Positions 1,344 through 18,660 of a stretch of DNA of 18,660 nt are shown here, piece by piece. Position numbers and translations under genes: made by a program. The notes beneath the pieces were generated by a model. It did no database searches. It saw only the letters and a program-made list of their open reading frames with translations, and was not told where the DNA came from. Source of the DNA: a virus (Duplodnaviria > Heunggongvirae > Uroviricota > Caudoviricetes); the IMG/VR virus record IMGVR_UViG_2648501500_000009, one strand, 5' to 3'. Numbering within the stretch: the stretch's first letter is position 1; each line of letters starts with the position of its first letter.

Positions 1344-4300
1344 TCAGCATTCCTCCGTCACGTCGCATGGACAGCATCACCGCCTGCACCCGCTGGTCAA
1401 TCAGCTGCACAAGACTGCCTGCCGCCTCCGGCCCTATCTGGCCATTAGTCCCGTCATTCTGAATGGCGATATGGTAGACCGGGGAATACACCAGACCCGC
1501 ACTGCCGTTCATACTACCCACCGCGCGCACACCCAGCGAGCCATCCGCCGCCCGCGTCAGAGGCATAATGGCTTCAGGTCCGGCCTCCCCCATCAGCCCG
1601 GCCCCTTTTGCAAAGGCAAAGTACGTGGGCGTATCCACAATACTGTTGCTGTACGCACTCAGGTTTGCCGAGGTATACACGCCGCCTTTTGCATTGGCCA
1701 CCGCTCCGCCCAGCCAGTCACCAATGCTGCCGAGAAATCCTCCCGCACCGGACATACCGTTTGCCGCCGTCTTAATTCCGTTGACAATCGCGGCATTCAT
1801 AAGAACTTTTGATATTTCCTGCAGCACTGATGAGGCCCAGCTGCGCCATTCCACTTTATTTCCGTTCAGCATCTCCGTGATGTTATTCACCATCCCTGAG
1901 ATACCCTCCGTCGCAAGCTGTGCTGCCTGTGAGGCGTAATCGGACGCATTATCCACCCAGTTACTGAATCCCTCCTGCAGCCCTTTCTGCCAGTCCGCAC
2001 GCTGCGCATCCGATTCGGCATAAAAGGCTTCCTGCTCTTTCAGACGTTCACTCAGATACTGTGCATTCTGCGCCAGAGCCTGTCTGTAAAAATCCTCACT
2101 GATATCCCCGGTCTGATACTGAGACTGAAGGTCCGCATCCTTCTGGCGGAAGCTGTCGCGGATCTGCTGCAACTCCCGCATGCGTTCTCTGGCTCGTTCC
2201 CCCTGCCCGTACCCCAGCAGTTCAGCATCATTCGACGCACGCGCAGCCGCATTCTCATTCTTCAGTGTCTCTTCCCGGGATCGCAACTGTTCCCGGATTT
2301 TTTGCTGGTCAATCAGGGCCGCATTACGCAGCAGCTCCTGCTTCTGCATCTCCGTCAGGGTTTTCAGTTCGCCCTGCGCAGTCTGGTATTTCAGCTTCGC
2401 CAGCTCTGTATTCTGCCCCACCAGTGCCAGTTGCTCTTTCTGCTGCTTCAGCAGCCGGGAAAAACTGTCTTCCGCTTTTTCCGTCTCTGATTTTCCACCC
2501 CGGGATTTGGGTTTATTCGCCTCGTTATTGCGCCAGGCTTCCAGGGCATTACTGATATAACGTTGTCTCGCCTCCTGATACGGATCACCCACAAAACCGA
2601 GGTCATCCGCCGCATACCCCAGCCGGACACGCTCTTTTTCTTCCCCTTTCAGTCTGGACAGGGCCAGCTCACGCTCTGTTTTTGTCAGGGCACTCTGCTG
2701 TTTATCATCCAGGGTGGCCTGTGGCAGCCGTAACGGCACATTCACCAGTCCCTGCCGCTGCTGAAGCAGTTCATTCCCCAGCCCCAGCAGACGGTTAAAT
2801 TCCGTATGCTGAACATTCATCTGCAGCAATGCCTGGTATGCTCTGTTCTGCTCTGCTGCCTCCTCGCGTATCCTCGCCACACGGTTGTATTCCAGTGACG
2901 CCAGAGCTTCCTGTACAGACTTCGCCTTTTCCTGCATCTGTGTCAGTCGTGACTGTTCAACCGCCAGTTTGCCAGTTGCCTCCGCAAGGCCGTGGGTTAT
3001 AATCTCCACACCTGAACCACCCTGTGGATTTTCCTGCAGCCAGCGCTGATAGTCAGCAATCTGTGTTTTCAGTCCCCGGACTTTACTTTCCTGCTCAGCA
3101 ATCAGACGATTCTGCTCTTCCAGTGCCTCGCGAGTTTTACCCTCATTATCAGCCAGTTCCGGAAGGGTCATTCCCGGTACCTTTGCCCGGATTTCATCAA
3201 TCGTCGATGCATACTGACGGGCGGACTCCCTGGCCTGTTCCTGATTCTGGTACACCGTGTACCAGGCACCGGCTCCCAGCATCAGTAAACCGGGTATCCC
3301 GCCGACAAGCGAAAGCAGGGATGCCGCGCCACTTTTCAGCATTCCCGTAACCGACGTGGCATTCTCCAGCGCCTTCCTCGAGGCCGCCACCGCCTGATTC
3401 GACTGTACCAGTGCGGCATTGGCCACAATCATGGCCCGGCGTTTTGCGACGGCATTCTGTGTGGCCAGCGCCTCCGCACTGCTATTTCTGGCCAGTGCAA
3501 GTTCAGCCTGTGCCAGTTGCCAGGCACGTTCTGCCGCCAGCGCGTCAGCTGCCGCCTTACGCTGCACCTGAACAGCCGCATCTGCCTGTGCGGCTGCAAG
3601 GGCAACCGTCCCGGACTTCGCCGCGATCAGCTCTGTGGTGGCCTTTCCCACGCCTGCGGCCATATTGCCAAAGTACCGGGCCACCCCGACGGCAACCAGC
3701 GCCCCCGCGGCTGTTGCCACATTATCAATATTACCGGCAACACCGTTCAGCACGCCGGAGAGCGTTTTCGTCGCTCCGCTGGCTTCATTCGCGCCACCCA
3801 CCCAGGCCATAAAGGCGTTTTCCACCTTTGTGATCCCGTCAGAGACCGTTTCCGGCATGGCGGCATATTCATCACGCAATACCCCCAGCTGGCTGATTAA
3901 CGCAGGAACGACTTTATCCGCCGTCAGTTTGCCGTCGTCCGCCATCGCCTTAAGGTCTTTACGGGCCACGCCCATACCCGCAGCCAGTGCACGTATGATC
4001 CGGTCTCCGCTTTCATTGACCGAATTAAATTCCTCACCCCGTAACACACCCTGTGCCAGCGCCTGGCTGAACTGGGTGATCACCGAGCCCGCCTCTGCCG
4101 TACTGGCACCGGATATTTTCAGCCCTGTCGAAATGGCCTCCGTCACCTTCAGTACATCACCGGCACTGTAACCATATTCACGCATTGAGGCAGCCGAACG
4201 GGCAAACAGGGCCGCATTATCCGAAAATGCCGTGCCTGTCCGCTGGCTGATATCCATCAGCACTTTCTGTGATGACGAAAATTCATCAGATGACTGCGAC

Positions 4301-15475: not shown

Positions 15476-15808
15476 TCAGGGTGCAGAAGGACTAAAGATA
15501 AACGTTTTCTTCACGCCTTTACACGGCCTGTCCTTCTCAAATCGCCATTTTGCCATCGCCTTTACAACCTGCTCATCAAACAGATGGTGCGGCTCTGAAC
15601 GAATAAACTCAATTCGGGTGACAGTACCATCAGCACCAATATCAAACCTCACATCAACCCGTCCCTTTATATAATTTGCCGCTGCATAGGCCGGATATTG
15701 TGGTAATGCCTTAACCAACTGTCGGGGCATATCTGTTTTATGTTGCGTACAGCCCATAACCAGAGAAGACAACAAAATAATTAACGGAAGATTTCTTTTC
15801 ATTTTCAT
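15476..15808 (-). CDS. Lipoprotein with TonB C-terminal-domain-like fold (moron candidate)
   Basis: Signal peptide plus lipobox-like LVMGC; YPAYAAANYIKGRVDVRFDIGADGTVTRIEFIRSEP...AMAKWRF matches the TonB-C pattern (YP..A...G.V.V.F.I...G.V). ATG starts at MKMKRNL preferred over the upstream GTG of the ORF track. Own promoter-like elements upstream; flanked by non-coding DNA. Confidence 0.65.
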   Translation of the reverse strand: MKMKRNLPLIILLSSLVMGCTQHKTDMPRQLVKALPQYPAYAAANYIKGRVDVRFDIGADGTVTRIEFIRSEPHHLFDEQVVKAMAKWRFEKDRPCKGVKKTFIFSPSAP

Positions 15809-16140
15809 TCCCCGCACAGATAAAAATAAGTCTTATTCTAACAATGCCGCCCTGTCGGTCATCAATCCTCTGCTTAATGGCAACGACAATTATCCGACTT
15901 AAATCACAAATCAGACACATGACATAACAGGGCTTGCGAGGTAACACATCGTCCTGTTTCTTCCACCATCGCACCGGACTGGCGACTATGAGGGGACAAC
16001 GCCGCGCTCCGTTAACGCGGTAAACCCCGGTGTGTATCGTTTTTGATTATCCCCGCACACTCGCGCAGAGGAGTCTCCCTGTCGGGCTGCGGTCTCTGTT
16101 AATGAGGGAATACAGCGACGATACGGCGCATCAACAAAAC

Positions 16141-16608
16141 TTATTTCAGGCACTGAGTACGGATATATTCCTGCGCCCCTTCCAGCTGCTTCTGCATTGT
16201 CATCAACCGTTCTCTGAGGATGAAATAATCCCGTTCAGCGGTGTCTGCCAGTCGGGGGCCGGTTGCATTATCCACGCCGGAGGTGCCGGTGGCTTCACGC
16301 ACGGTACCGGAGCAGGTGGCGTTGATCCGCAGGCGCTTACGACCAGCGGCAACATCAGCACGCAGAGTTTCATTTTCAGCTCTCGCATCGGCTAATTCCC
16401 TCGAGTATTTTGCATCGAGCGCAGCAACATCGCGCTGGCGCACCTGCATATCAGTAATGGTTGCGTTCGCCAGCTTCAGTTCACTGGCTTTTTTATCGCG
16501 CTGCGCTTTGTAAGTGATGGCGTTATCGCGGTAATGATTCAGCCCCAGACTAAGCGCACCACAGGCCACCAGCAGAGCAATGATGACCACACACAGAACG
16601 CGGTTCAT
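16141..16608 (-). CDS. Rz: Rz i-spanin (155 aa from MNRVLCVV)
   Basis: Near-colinear with lambda Rz ([16 protein letters not shown]...[15 protein letters not shown]...[30 protein letters not shown]); the ORF-track N-terminal extension is rejected. Confidence 0.9.
16203..16388 (-). CDS. Rz1: Rz1 o-spanin lipoprotein, embedded in the +1 frame of Rz
   Basis: [22 protein letters not shown]...[27 protein letters not shown] closely matches lambda Rz1 (lipobox plus Pro-rich periplasmic segment); entirely inside Rz. Confidence 0.85.
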
Positions 16609-16707
16609 TTCACCACCAACGGATTGCCCAGACCAGAACAGCAATGGCCACAATACGAATGGCAAATGCCATTGCCCGAATAAGTTCAGCACTCATCTTT
16701 TTAAAGT

Positions 16708-16830
16708 TCACGATTTCAGCGCAATGACCAGTTTTGCCAGCCCATATAGCATCGGAGACACAGCAATACCAACAGCCACCCACTTAATAGCAAAAGCCAG
16801 CGCTCTGCTGATGTCATCAGTCACTGTCAC
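16708..16830 (-). CDS. Candidate small hydrophobic peptide ORF-c (40 aa, GTG start overlapping ORF-b stop as GTGA)
   Basis: VTVTDDISRALAFAIKWVAVGIAVSPMLYGLAKLVIALKS; frame open from further upstream (90-codon ORF in track); real start uncertain. Confidence 0.25.
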   Translation of the reverse strand: MTVTDDISRALAFAIKWVAVGIAVSPMLYGLAKLVIALKS

Positions 16831-16958
16831 CCCAGCAGCCCCGACGAAGACAACATCACCCAGGCGAGGGACAGAAAAAGAGCAACCAGCATTAGTGAAA
16901 ATGAAATACCGACAATCACACAGAGGACCTTTGCCGGCGTTATGAGTTTGTCTGACAT
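16827..16958 (-). CDS. Candidate small membrane peptide ORF-b (43 aa)
   Basis: MSDKLITPAKVLCVIVGISFSLMLVALFLSLAWVMLSSSGLLG; ATG 2 nt after the ORF-a stop (TAGctATG); one predicted TM helix; below the 60-aa cutoff of the ORF track. Confidence 0.35.
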   Translation of the reverse strand: MSDKLITPAKVLCVIVGISFSLMLVALFLSLAWVMLSSSGLLG

Positions 16959-16960
16959 AG

Positions 16961-17056
16961 CTACCCCTTAATTGCCACAATTAACTGGGATACTACCCAT
17001 AAAAAAGGGATGCTCCAGACCAGCAAAAATTTCCAGTTTGGTAATTGACTAATCAT
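16961..17056 (-). CDS. Candidate small membrane peptide ORF-a (31 aa)
   Basis: MISQLPNWKFLLVWSIPFLWVVSQLIVAIKG; ATG preceded by GGGAG 9 nt upstream; the longer GTG-initiated ORF in the track runs through the terminator hairpin and is rejected. Confidence 0.3.
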   Translation of the reverse strand: MISQLPNWKFLLVWSIPFLWVVSQLIVAIKG

Positions 17057-17121
17057 GAGTCGCAACTCCCTAATCAGTTTGCTAAAATCAATCAAGGCAG
17101 CCTCCCATAGCTTACTGCCAT

Positions 17122-17174
17122 AAAAACAAAACCCCGCTTGCTGCCAACAAACGGGGTTTTTACTTTTATTCACT
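17122..17174. terminator. Bidirectional intrinsic-terminator-like hairpin just downstream of the endolysin gene
   Basis: ACCCCGCTTG-ctgcca-CAAACGGGGT (9-bp stem, one mismatch) flanked by an A run on the left and TTTTTACTTTTATT on the right, so a U-tract follows the stem on either strand. Confidence 0.6.
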
Positions 17175-17250
17175 TACGTTTCGCCAGTTCGCAGGATTTC
17201 GTGTTATCCGCCCGCGTGGCCATGCCTTATTTTTCAGCAAAATATTCTGC

Positions 17251-17784
17251 TTATCTGTCGATACCCCAGCACGCCAGCGCGCTCTCCTGGTCACGACGGG
17301 ATACCTGACCGTAGCAGTTGTTTGAACGAATACGGCAGTCTCTGCCACCGTCCTTAATCCACCAGCGAATCGCCTCACACGCTCCCCTGCGATCACCTGC
17401 ATTAATTCGTCTGTAAAACGTCGACGGGAAACACTTACCGGGACCAATGTTGTACGGACAGAATGACGCGATCCCCGCTTTCTGGGGTTCGGTCAGTGGC
17501 ACTTTGATGTTTTTCTCCACCCATGCCAGCGCCTTATCACGTTCAATGGCGTTAACCTGGTCGCATTTTTCCTTCGACAACTTCATGCCCGGGAGGACAG
17601 GCTTACCATCCACCCGGGTGGCACCGCGACAGATGGTCCAGATACCCGCGCCATCACGGTATGCCGTGGTGTGGTTACCTTCCTTTTCATCCAGAAACTG
17701 GTCGAGGATTTCAGGCGCAGGCGCACCTGCGGCAATCAGCGCCAGAACGGCAGCCGACAGGCCGTATTTGATTTTTGCGTTCAT
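17251..17784 (-). CDS. R: SAR endolysin, phage-21 R-type lysozyme (GH24 / T4-lysozyme fold), 177 aa
   Basis: N-terminal Gly/Ala-rich weakly hydrophobic segment (YGLSAAVLALIAAGAPAPEIL) typical of signal-anchor-release domains; catalytic E-x8-D-x5-T triad (EGNHTTAYRDGAGIWT); C-terminal region similar to R21 as recalled. Confidence 0.85.
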   Translation of the reverse strand: MNAKIKYGLSAAVLALIAAGAPAPEILDQFLDEKEGNHTTAYRDGAGIWTICRGATRVDGKPVLPGMKLSKEKCDQVNAIERDKALAWVEKNIKVPLTEPQKAGIASFCPYNIGPGKCFPSTFYRRINAGDRRGACEAIRWWIKDGGRDCRIRSNNCYGQVSRRDQESALACWGIDR

Positions 17785-17834
17785 GGATATTTATCAGGAT
17801 TTATCGATTTCAAATCCCTGGATATGTTAAGTCT

Positions 17835-18182
17835 TCAGGCCAGCGGTGGAGTCTTCAGAGAACCAGTAATTATTCCCGGTAGTTTTCCTCTGTAGGTTAT
17901 CAACACATCCTGCGCCTCTAAAATGATGGGCCGCTTTTCCGGCAACGGACCATCCCCTTCACATAACCCGGCAGCAACATCCATGAAAAACTGCTTCGCC
18001 TGCTTTTTCGCCTCAGCTTCGTAAAACTCCAGCGTGGCACCTTCAGTACGGTCAAGACTAATCGCCACATATGGCAACAACAGTGACGGATACCCACCAA
18101 TTTCCAGTGCCACAGTAACAGTAATCTTATCCGGGTAATTATTTATCCCTTTAACAACCAGTTCGTATTTTTTATTCATCAC
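17835..18182 (-). CDS. Hypothetical protein embedded between holin and endolysin (115 aa); positional analogue of ydfR-type genes in E. coli prophage lysis cassettes
   Basis: ATG 2 nt downstream of the holin stop; soluble-looking, acidic; no family recognised with confidence. Confidence 0.6.
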   Translation of the reverse strand: MMNKKYELVVKGINNYPDKITVTVALEIGGYPSLLLPYVAISLDRTEGATLEFYEAEAKKQAKQFFMDVAAGLCEGDGPLPEKRPIILEAQDVLITYRGKLPGIITGSLKTPPLA

Positions 18183-18183
18183 T

Positions 18184-18399
18184 TTACTCTCCCCGCGCCG
18201 CCTTACGCCGGTCCTCTCTGATTTTGAAATACAGGTTAGTCAGATACGTCAGCAGGCCAAACAGCAGACTCCCCAGCACACCTATCGCCACCCACTGGGA
18301 CGGAGAGACTTTGTCCAGCAGCTGCAGTAACCAGTATCCCGTCCCCACCGCTGACGTGGTGTATGACACACCCGTTGTGATTTTTTCCATCTGGTACAT
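18184..18399 (-). CDS. S: Pinholin, phage 21 S-type, 71 aa with dual-start motif (MYQMEK)
   Basis: [71 protein letters not shown] is colinear with S21 (two TM domains, basic C-terminus, Met1/Met4 starts). The 35-codon upstream extension in the ORF track is rejected. Confidence 0.85.
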
Positions 18400-18430
18400 A
18401 CCCCGTCTCCCGTTATCCGGAAGCTGACAA

Positions 18431-18463
18431 CAATAAAAAAGCCACCAGTTAACTACTGATGGC
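18431..18463 (-). terminator. tR'-like intrinsic terminator immediately upstream of the holin gene
   Basis: Minus strand GCCATCAG-tagttaa-CTGGTGGC (8-bp stem with one G.U pair) followed by TTTTTTATTG; in lambdoid phages the Q-dependent late terminator tR' occupies this position. Confidence 0.6.
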
Positions 18464-18548
18464 TCTGATAACTCATGCAGGCGTCTCAGACGACCCACTG
18501 ACACTACCGGTGAGTTTAACGATACCTTCCATTTGACTGGCTCACTTT

Positions 18549-18660
18549 TTATGATGATGCCGGTGCATTTATCTCCAGCACCAGACTTTCTATCTCAACG
18601 CCATACGCTGCATTTTTTGTAACATCCGTCAGCGTCAGCGCATTCAGTCCCAGTGTCAGA
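18549..18660 (-). CDS. 3' end (last 36 codons) of an upstream gene entering from the right edge; possibly the late antiterminator Q
   Basis: Open minus-strand frame from the window edge: ...[40 protein letters not shown] (TAA at 18549-18551). Identity inferred only from position upstream of tR' and the lysis genes. Confidence 0.35.

Follow-up and report, generated by a model that had tools for sequence, protein, structure and literature searches.

Pinholin lysis can be reconstituted by S21, R21, Rz and Rz1 by themselves. Antiholins and other lysis regulators, such as S21-71, lambda S107, T4 RI and P1 LydB, are found inside the lysis cassette beside the holin, as is the gene analyzed here. A second group of genes with which this gene can be compared is that of the lambdoid morons (lambda bor and lom, the HK97 and HK022 morons), a concept that reportedly goes back to Hendrix and Juhala. 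Like the gene described below, lambdoid morons are present or absent between homologous neighbours, deviate in composition and lie at late-operon junctions. Furthermore, the T4 Srd, T7 gp0.7 and phiKZ Dip proteins are phage modulators of RNase E and provide a precedent for phage manipulation of this enzyme.

The closest described relative is YdfR of E. coli K-12 (P76160, b1555), a small, soluble and acidic protein encoded by the Qin cryptic prophage. Previously, amino acids 1-72 of YdfR were recovered in a two-hybrid screen, and the full-length protein gave a two-hybrid signal with Rne(1-597), a signal that was seen with one Rne construct only (PMC13232886). In the same study, Strep-YdfR was found to co-elute Rne(1-598)-FLAG expressed from the chromosome, the YdfR eluate was rich in DNase-resistant nucleic acid, and overexpression of YdfR was non-toxic and altered few transcripts (PMC13232886). 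Because the eluate was RNA-rich, the co-elution of YdfR and Rne could conceivably be bridged by RNA. The association of K-12 YdfR with Rne(1-597/598) and with RNA resembles that of RapZ, the adaptor for GlmZ, which binds the RNase E catalytic half; the RNase E lead for K-12 YdfR is recent and testable. In the literature, we found no paper on the "YdfR family" and none giving the S-R insert of Stx phages a function.

We analyzed a stretch of 18,660 nucleotides from a virus of the Caudoviricetes (IMG/VR record IMGVR_UViG_2648501500_000009), the whole of which is called the window here (Table 1). The initial annotation had described an ORF between the pinholin and SAR endolysin genes, 50 nt short of the latter, had guessed that it might be of the ydfR type and had proposed a DUF1327 HMM search as a check. 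Its position was correct, and the search bore out the guess: the window protein matched Pfam DUF1327 (PF07041) with 149.6 bits (E=2.9e-44; cut-off 25) over model positions 1-92 of 93, as well as phrog_406 in PHROGs (E=3e-63), while an NCBIfam search with the same protein matched no model. All 31 aligned relatives score above the PF07041 gathering threshold. The order essQ-ydfR-rrrQ-rzpQ of the Qin prophage matches that of the window, and the flanking genes are close to their K-12 counterparts (holin versus EssQ, 79% identity; endolysin versus RrrQ, 89%). Moreover, E. coli 97-3250 has a prophage with 100% identity to the window, in which the gene product is WP_021569237.1, named "YdfR family protein" by PGAP. 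It is thus practically certain that the ORF belongs to YdfR/DUF1327, which is a known family, and the window gene is already annotated in RefSeq.

The family is small: a profile search run exhaustively against 1.84 billion representatives yielded only 90 clusters. Its source-named members come from Escherichia, Shigella and Yersinia. Within E. coli, the gene with its junctions was matched in 3021 of 5426 complete genomes, near-full-length in 2172, at a median of two and a maximum of ten places per genome. It is also common in Stx1a phages and occurs in BP-4795 and Stx2 phage 86. In Shiga-toxin-producing strains the gene is often multicopy, and it lies on the late transcript from which toxin release and lysis are driven.

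Table 1. Coordinates of the YdfR-family gene, its modules and the surrounding lysis region in the window.
Feature	Position	Strand	Evidence
YdfR-family (DUF1327) gene	17835..18179 (ATG, 114 aa); 17835..18182 (GTG, 115 aa)	minus	PF07041, phrog_406, RefSeq
N core, aa 1-74, conserved DUF1327 domain	17958..18179	minus	alignments, AF2, K-12 identity
M module, aa 75-114, GDGPLPEKRP...KTPPLA	17838..17957	minus	alignment, low-confidence structure
S21-type (class II) pinholin, 71 aa, dual start MYQM	18184..18399	minus	PF04971 E=1e-32
GGAGAG Shine-Dalgarno, within the end of the holin gene	18187..18192	minus	direct sequence reading, junction alignment
50-nt leader ahead of the endolysin	17785..17834	minus	conserved right-hand end of the inserted cassette; kept in 2H10 and Evi
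SAR endolysin (R21 type), 177 aa	17251..17784	minus	PF00959 E=5e-25; N-terminal hydrophobic segment
Rz spanin	16141..16608	minus	PF03245 E=2.5e-50
Rz1 lipoprotein ORF, embedded in Rz	16203..16373		reading frame and coordinates
Terminator-like hairpin (12-bp stem) and T-run, just upstream of the holin	18438..18466	minus	5' side of the S-ydfR-R block
Terminator-like hairpin (15-bp stem) and T-run, just past the endolysin	17128..17160	minus	stem and T-run

Two start codons are available to the gene. The ATG at 18179 lies 4 nt past the end of the holin gene and the GTG at 18182 lies 1 nt past it. We consider ATG the likelier start, because it stands 7 nt from the GGAGAG, whereas the GTG has a spacing of just 4 nt, because ATG is the RefSeq/PGAP choice for WP_021569237.1, and because the N-termini of YdfR-family homologues read M-N/T-K. 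The resulting protein is cytoplasmic, with a pI of 5.4 and a mass of 12.4 kDa. That it has no TM segment, as had been noticed at the outset, was confirmed by its highest 19-residue Kyte-Doolittle mean of 1.29, compared to maxima of 1.83 in the holin and, in the SAR domain of the endolysin, 1.74. No sigma-70-like promoter was found on the minus strand of the ORF, and no terminator was found straight after it. With no promoter of its own on this strand, the window gene must use the late transcript, like its relatives, in agreement with the initial view that it is expressed with the lysis genes. Classical morons differ in this respect, as each comes with a promoter and a terminator and is expressed in the prophage state, while on the strand of the window gene both elements are missing and its expression is late.

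The two hairpins of Table 1 flank the S-ydfR-R block, and Q-modified polymerase presumably reads through them. The region 16000-18660 contains nine terminator-like sites versus 2.3 expected from shuffles, and Rfam gave no match in this region.

The junctions of the block were compared with those of 933W, 2H10 and Qin. In 933W, S and R genes of the same type lie 4 nt apart with no insert, and R is served by GGAGAG; in the window, this GGAGAG serves the DUF1327 ATG instead. The 50-nt leader before R in the window has no obvious Shine-Dalgarno sequence, and the hairpin found in it is weak and no better than in shuffles (folding z-score 0.75). Relative to phage 2H10, the window lacks ~486 bp, which comprise a C module and an antisense 86-aa ORF, and it is at this deletion junction that the stop codon of the 114-aa form and the two residues before it arise. 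K-12 YdfR ends differently, with 103 aa, an unrelated helical tail and a stop codon that overlaps the endolysin start, where the window has the M module and a 50-nt gap. In Qin, the overlap of the ydfR stop with the rrrQ start (ATGA; L001:6055-6058) implies translational coupling.

The window pinholin starts with MYQM (18388-18399, minus strand) without Lys2, which is the source of the extra positive charge in the longer S21-71 form; the N-terminus of 933W S is identical. The holin N-terminus (MYQM versus MKSM) did not correlate with the presence of the gene, as MYQM is found in 933W, where the gene is absent, and MKSM in Qin, where it is present.

Our alignments showed that the gene is modular. 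Distant members of the family are stand-alone cores of 72-76 aa that align without gaps, and neither these 72-aa forms nor K-12 YdfR have the M module, which in the alignment covers aa 75-112 (GDGPLPEKRP...KTPP). An optional C module, a coiled coil of ~65 aa, is found in forms of 176 and 183 aa, e.g. in phage 2H10. The N core occurs in two allelic types, INNYPDK... and IRNFENK.... Y53-E54 is invariant in both alignments, and Y5 is invariant in the 31-sequence alignment. AlphaFold2, run with the 31-sequence alignment, predicted three strands (residues 5-14, 18-27 and 37-43), followed by a helix that spans residues 50-73 (pLDDT 68-91 by 10-residue block), and residues 74-114 had a pLDDT below 50. 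According to this model, the conserved unit of the family is a core of ~72 aa with three predicted strands and one long helix. A sequence search of the PDB with the family profile gave chance matches only (E 0.45). A dsRNA-binding domain (PF00035, dsrm) was considered and rejected, as the combination of an alpha-beta-beta-beta-alpha fold and a dsrm profile match was not found.

Several recombinant forms reflect frequent module shuffling in the S-R slot. P0156 has the M module and a C-like coiled coil without the N core, P0038 has the DUF1327 core fused to the C-terminus of Ant (KilAC), and P0122, at 287 aa, is extended at its C-terminus by a long additional region.

The selection data distinguish the core from the rest of the gene. 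The dN/dS of the core was 0.17-0.24 between divergent alleles (0.17 for K-12 YdfR versus 2H10), and the M module, with a dN/dS of 0.63 versus 2H10, is less constrained. Among close alleles, pN/pS was 0.30-0.49 versus 0.08-0.11 for S and R, i.e. the flanking lysis genes gave values 3-5 times lower, and the constraint on the gene at this level is modest. Nevertheless, of the 64 close copies in IMG/VR that are full-length, 63 are intact; the PF07041 score of the gene, these intact copies and the dN/dS of the core show that it is not a chance ORF.

The presence and composition of the gene set it apart from its neighbours. A query with S-ydfR-R matched 369 phage records at the DNA level, a count that takes in S/R-only matches, and 106 of these hold DUF1327 or a C-module relative; at least about 263 of the 369 have the cassette without DUF1327. 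When the opening word in the name of the organism was used to assign records, gene and cassette records numbered 41 versus 47 for Stx1a phages and 7 versus 124 for Stx2a phages. The GC content of the gene is 46.7% versus 54.6-55.6% in its neighbours, and its GC3 is 47% versus 58-69%; similarly, the Yersinia copies have a GC content of 0.32-0.42 versus 0.42-0.54 in their surroundings.

In Yersinia prophages, the core gene lies between tail genes M and L or I and J in the same orientation as these genes, and a small convergent ORF comes after it. Both slots contain an identical low-GC cassette of ~750 bp with the same ends. In the E. coli phage Evi, a 72-aa core and a convergent 98-aa ORF occupy the S-R slot. 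The Evi partner ORF is 61% identical to a Yersinia partner (L005; E=2e-46), and the Evi and Yersinia cassettes align as DNA, including the hairpin between the convergent genes. Thus, the core and its convergent partner are one mobile cassette that occupies at least three late-operon slots, and the window copy is a derivative in which the core was kept, a 40-aa M module was gained and the partner ORF was lost. The stand-alone proteins of Evi and Yersinia have a homologous core, 38-43% identical to that of the window, and share its co-oriented late-operon position and low GC content; they differ in consisting of the core alone, in the presence of the partner and, for those of Yersinia, in lying outside the lysis cassette. 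Among all these loci, the look of an autonomous unit comes only from the convergent partner in other phages; partner and intergenic hairpin may form such a unit, deleted in the window.

The cassette is seen at M-L, I-J and S-R in Yersinia contigs L005, L006, L008 and L011 (~2960-3725) and in Evi (L092:2440-3180). It contains the 72-aa DUF1327 core, the hairpin (AAAGCGGC..GCCGCTT) and a convergent ORF of ~98 aa (phrog_25324), and its right end provides the ribosome-binding region of the next phage gene. Differing convergent small helical ORFs (phrog_2572 and others) are found in 2H10 (L004:3000-3266, minus strand), L093:2458-2718 and L094:2621-2935, where they follow longer DUF1327 or C-module proteins in the S-R slot; forward and antisense genes seem to accumulate as pairs at this junction, which would make it a hot spot.

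Because 933W and most Stx2a phages are without the gene, its GC content is low and the cassette also occupies tail-gene slots, the gene is very probably an accessory, moron-like passenger of the late operon. The S-R location reflects the site at which the cassette inserted in E. coli lambdoids, among which it spread, and since the same cassette sits among tail genes, this location is no evidence of a lysis function. The lesson for annotation is that a position in the lysis cassette should not be taken as a function in lysis. What is added here to the known family is its N/M/C modular architecture, the deletion origin of the 114-aa form, and the finding that the DUF1327 core and its convergent partner travel together, in the manner of a moron, as a cassette that occupies lysis as well as tail slots.

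The explanation that best fits these results overall, which we put forward tentatively, is that the YdfR/DUF1327 protein is a moron-like passenger with a late role that involves RNase E or RNA and that lies outside core lysis. The RNase E part of this explanation was drawn because the interacting part of K-12 YdfR (aa 1-72) is the counterpart of the conserved core of the window protein; the functional data are those for K-12 YdfR, to which the window allele is 46% identical, and this identity is confined to residues 1-74. The protein is small and soluble, and the strong ribosome-binding site with which the pinholin gene ends serves its translation; by analogy with K-12 YdfR, late in lytic growth its core might bind the catalytic N-terminal half of host RNase E, RNA or both. 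The consequence would be a shift in the decay or processing of particular transcripts, with the protein acting as a modulator or adaptor and not as a global inhibitor. For the window allele, such an RNase E/RNA mechanism is possible though somewhat doubtful. A secondary effect in cis may be predicted from the junctions, as the insert takes the holin-proximal Shine-Dalgarno sequence and R would be left with the leader that lacks one. If the phage copies share this link, temperate phages would provide a further example of the manipulation of RNA decay, and the link could affect the stability of late transcripts, stx included.

A bolder version of this idea, which we regard as improbable, is that the core is a phage-borne adaptor resembling RapZ: a minimal RNA-binding domain, reminiscent of a dsRBD, would dock on the RNase E catalytic half late in infection and direct or protect a specific transcript of the phage or the host, and a mobile cassette of two genes, able to insert at several late-operon junctions, would have carried it through the prophages of Enterobacterales.

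The loss of the partner raises the question of whether the window copy is the orphaned half of a two-gene cassette, i.e. that the core needs its convergent partner, for example as regulator or antidote of a moron gene expressed in the lysogen, and that the partner-less copy is a functionless, drifting remnant. A convergent small ORF lies beside the gene in Yersinia, Evi, 2H10, PhiR12_2_star and one Stx2a phage, the ~486 bp missing relative to 2H10 include the partner ORF, and the relaxed selection seen in the overall pN/pS and in the M module would be expected of a remnant. However, the partner-less 114-aa form, recognized by its 50-nt gap, is the commonest, being found in 63 of the 80 closest IMG/VR loci, nearly all full-length copies are intact, and K-12 YdfR is also partner-less and its core is still conserved. 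Furthermore, homology among the partner ORFs was detected only between Evi and Yersinia L005, and the others belong to separate PHROG families. We therefore consider it rather unlikely that the window gene is such a remnant.

We likewise give a low probability to another cytoplasmic function in host takeover or in competition between phages, e.g. superinfection exclusion or anti-defence, in which case the RNase E signal of K-12 YdfR would be an artefact of overexpression. The moron-like features of the gene, its copy number, which reaches 10 per genome in poly-lysogenic STEC, and its two divergent core alleles and rapid module shuffling, as often seen in conflict genes, are consistent with this possibility, as is the limitation of the two-hybrid signal to one Rne construct. 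On the other hand, the window protein matched no PADLOC defence model, comparison of its fold gave no informative match, and, because its expression is that of a late-operon gene, the protein would be made only minutes before lysis, a poor fit to defence of the lysogen.

The initial annotation had suggested that the protein modulates the timing of pinholin and SAR endolysin action. In that case, a cytoplasmic protein would act on the pinholin tail or on the tethered SAR endolysin and so delay or sharpen lysis. The constancy of the arrangement speaks for this suggestion, as the order holin-ydfR-endolysin was found in all 78 evaluable loci among the 80 closest (E. coli-type), the gap after the holin stop is exactly 4 nt in 78 of the 79 loci with the holin present, Qin has the same order, and the gene is co-transcribed with the lysis genes. 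In addition, the Keio ydfR deletion is listed as CPRG-positive, i.e. as having a leaky envelope, in the supplement of a genome-wide envelope screen, in which essQ, rrrQ and rzpQ are not listed (Paradis-Bleau 2014); however, this result is a screen listing and may have arisen because the kan promoter had a polar effect on rrrQ. S and R of the same type function without the gene in 933W, where they are adjacent, and in most Stx2a phages, so that, together with the copies in tail operons, the gene has no obligate association with a cognate holin/endolysin pair. The protein also bears no likeness to the known antiholins: it is encoded by a separate ORF with no holin similarity and is not a holin isoform, it has no TM or periplasmic part, and its family is not confined to lysis cassettes. 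Most decisively, the finding of the core-plus-partner cassette in both lysis and tail slots, the latter in Yersinia, argues against a lysis-specific role. Homology to a moron family unrelated to lysis had been named at the outset as part of the evidence that would speak against the timing idea, and on the sequence side this is essentially what we observed. A role in lysis timing is thus unlikely, and less in keeping with these data than a moron-like passenger with a late RNase E/RNA role.

Finally, it is highly improbable that the insert is purely a spacer in cis, which would uncouple endolysin translation from the ribosome-binding site of the holin and lower the R:S ratio with the protein irrelevant, since the shift of GGAGAG from R to the insert and the SD-less leader of R fit such a role, but the conservation at the protein level (Pfam match and core dN/dS) and the occurrence of the gene in non-lysis slots do not.

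Other features of the window lie downstream of the endolysin gene. The stretch of ~640 bp between the endolysin and Rz genes (16708-17173, minus strand) contains three small, hydrophobic and overlapping ORFs (70, 43 and 33-90 aa), for which a Pfam search gave no match. RefSeq has hypothetical proteins of 28, 51 and 43 aa in this stretch, and at the corresponding position 933W carries an ant gene. Between the lysis cassette and the terminase genes, a 113-aa ORF (15476-15817, minus strand) contains a TonB C-terminal domain (PF03544, E=1e-14), is named "TonB family protein" in RefSeq and looks like another moron. An HNH endonuclease ORF (PF01844; 14737-15102, minus strand) is located just upstream of the small terminase subunit gene, an order that is the usual arrangement in cos phages.
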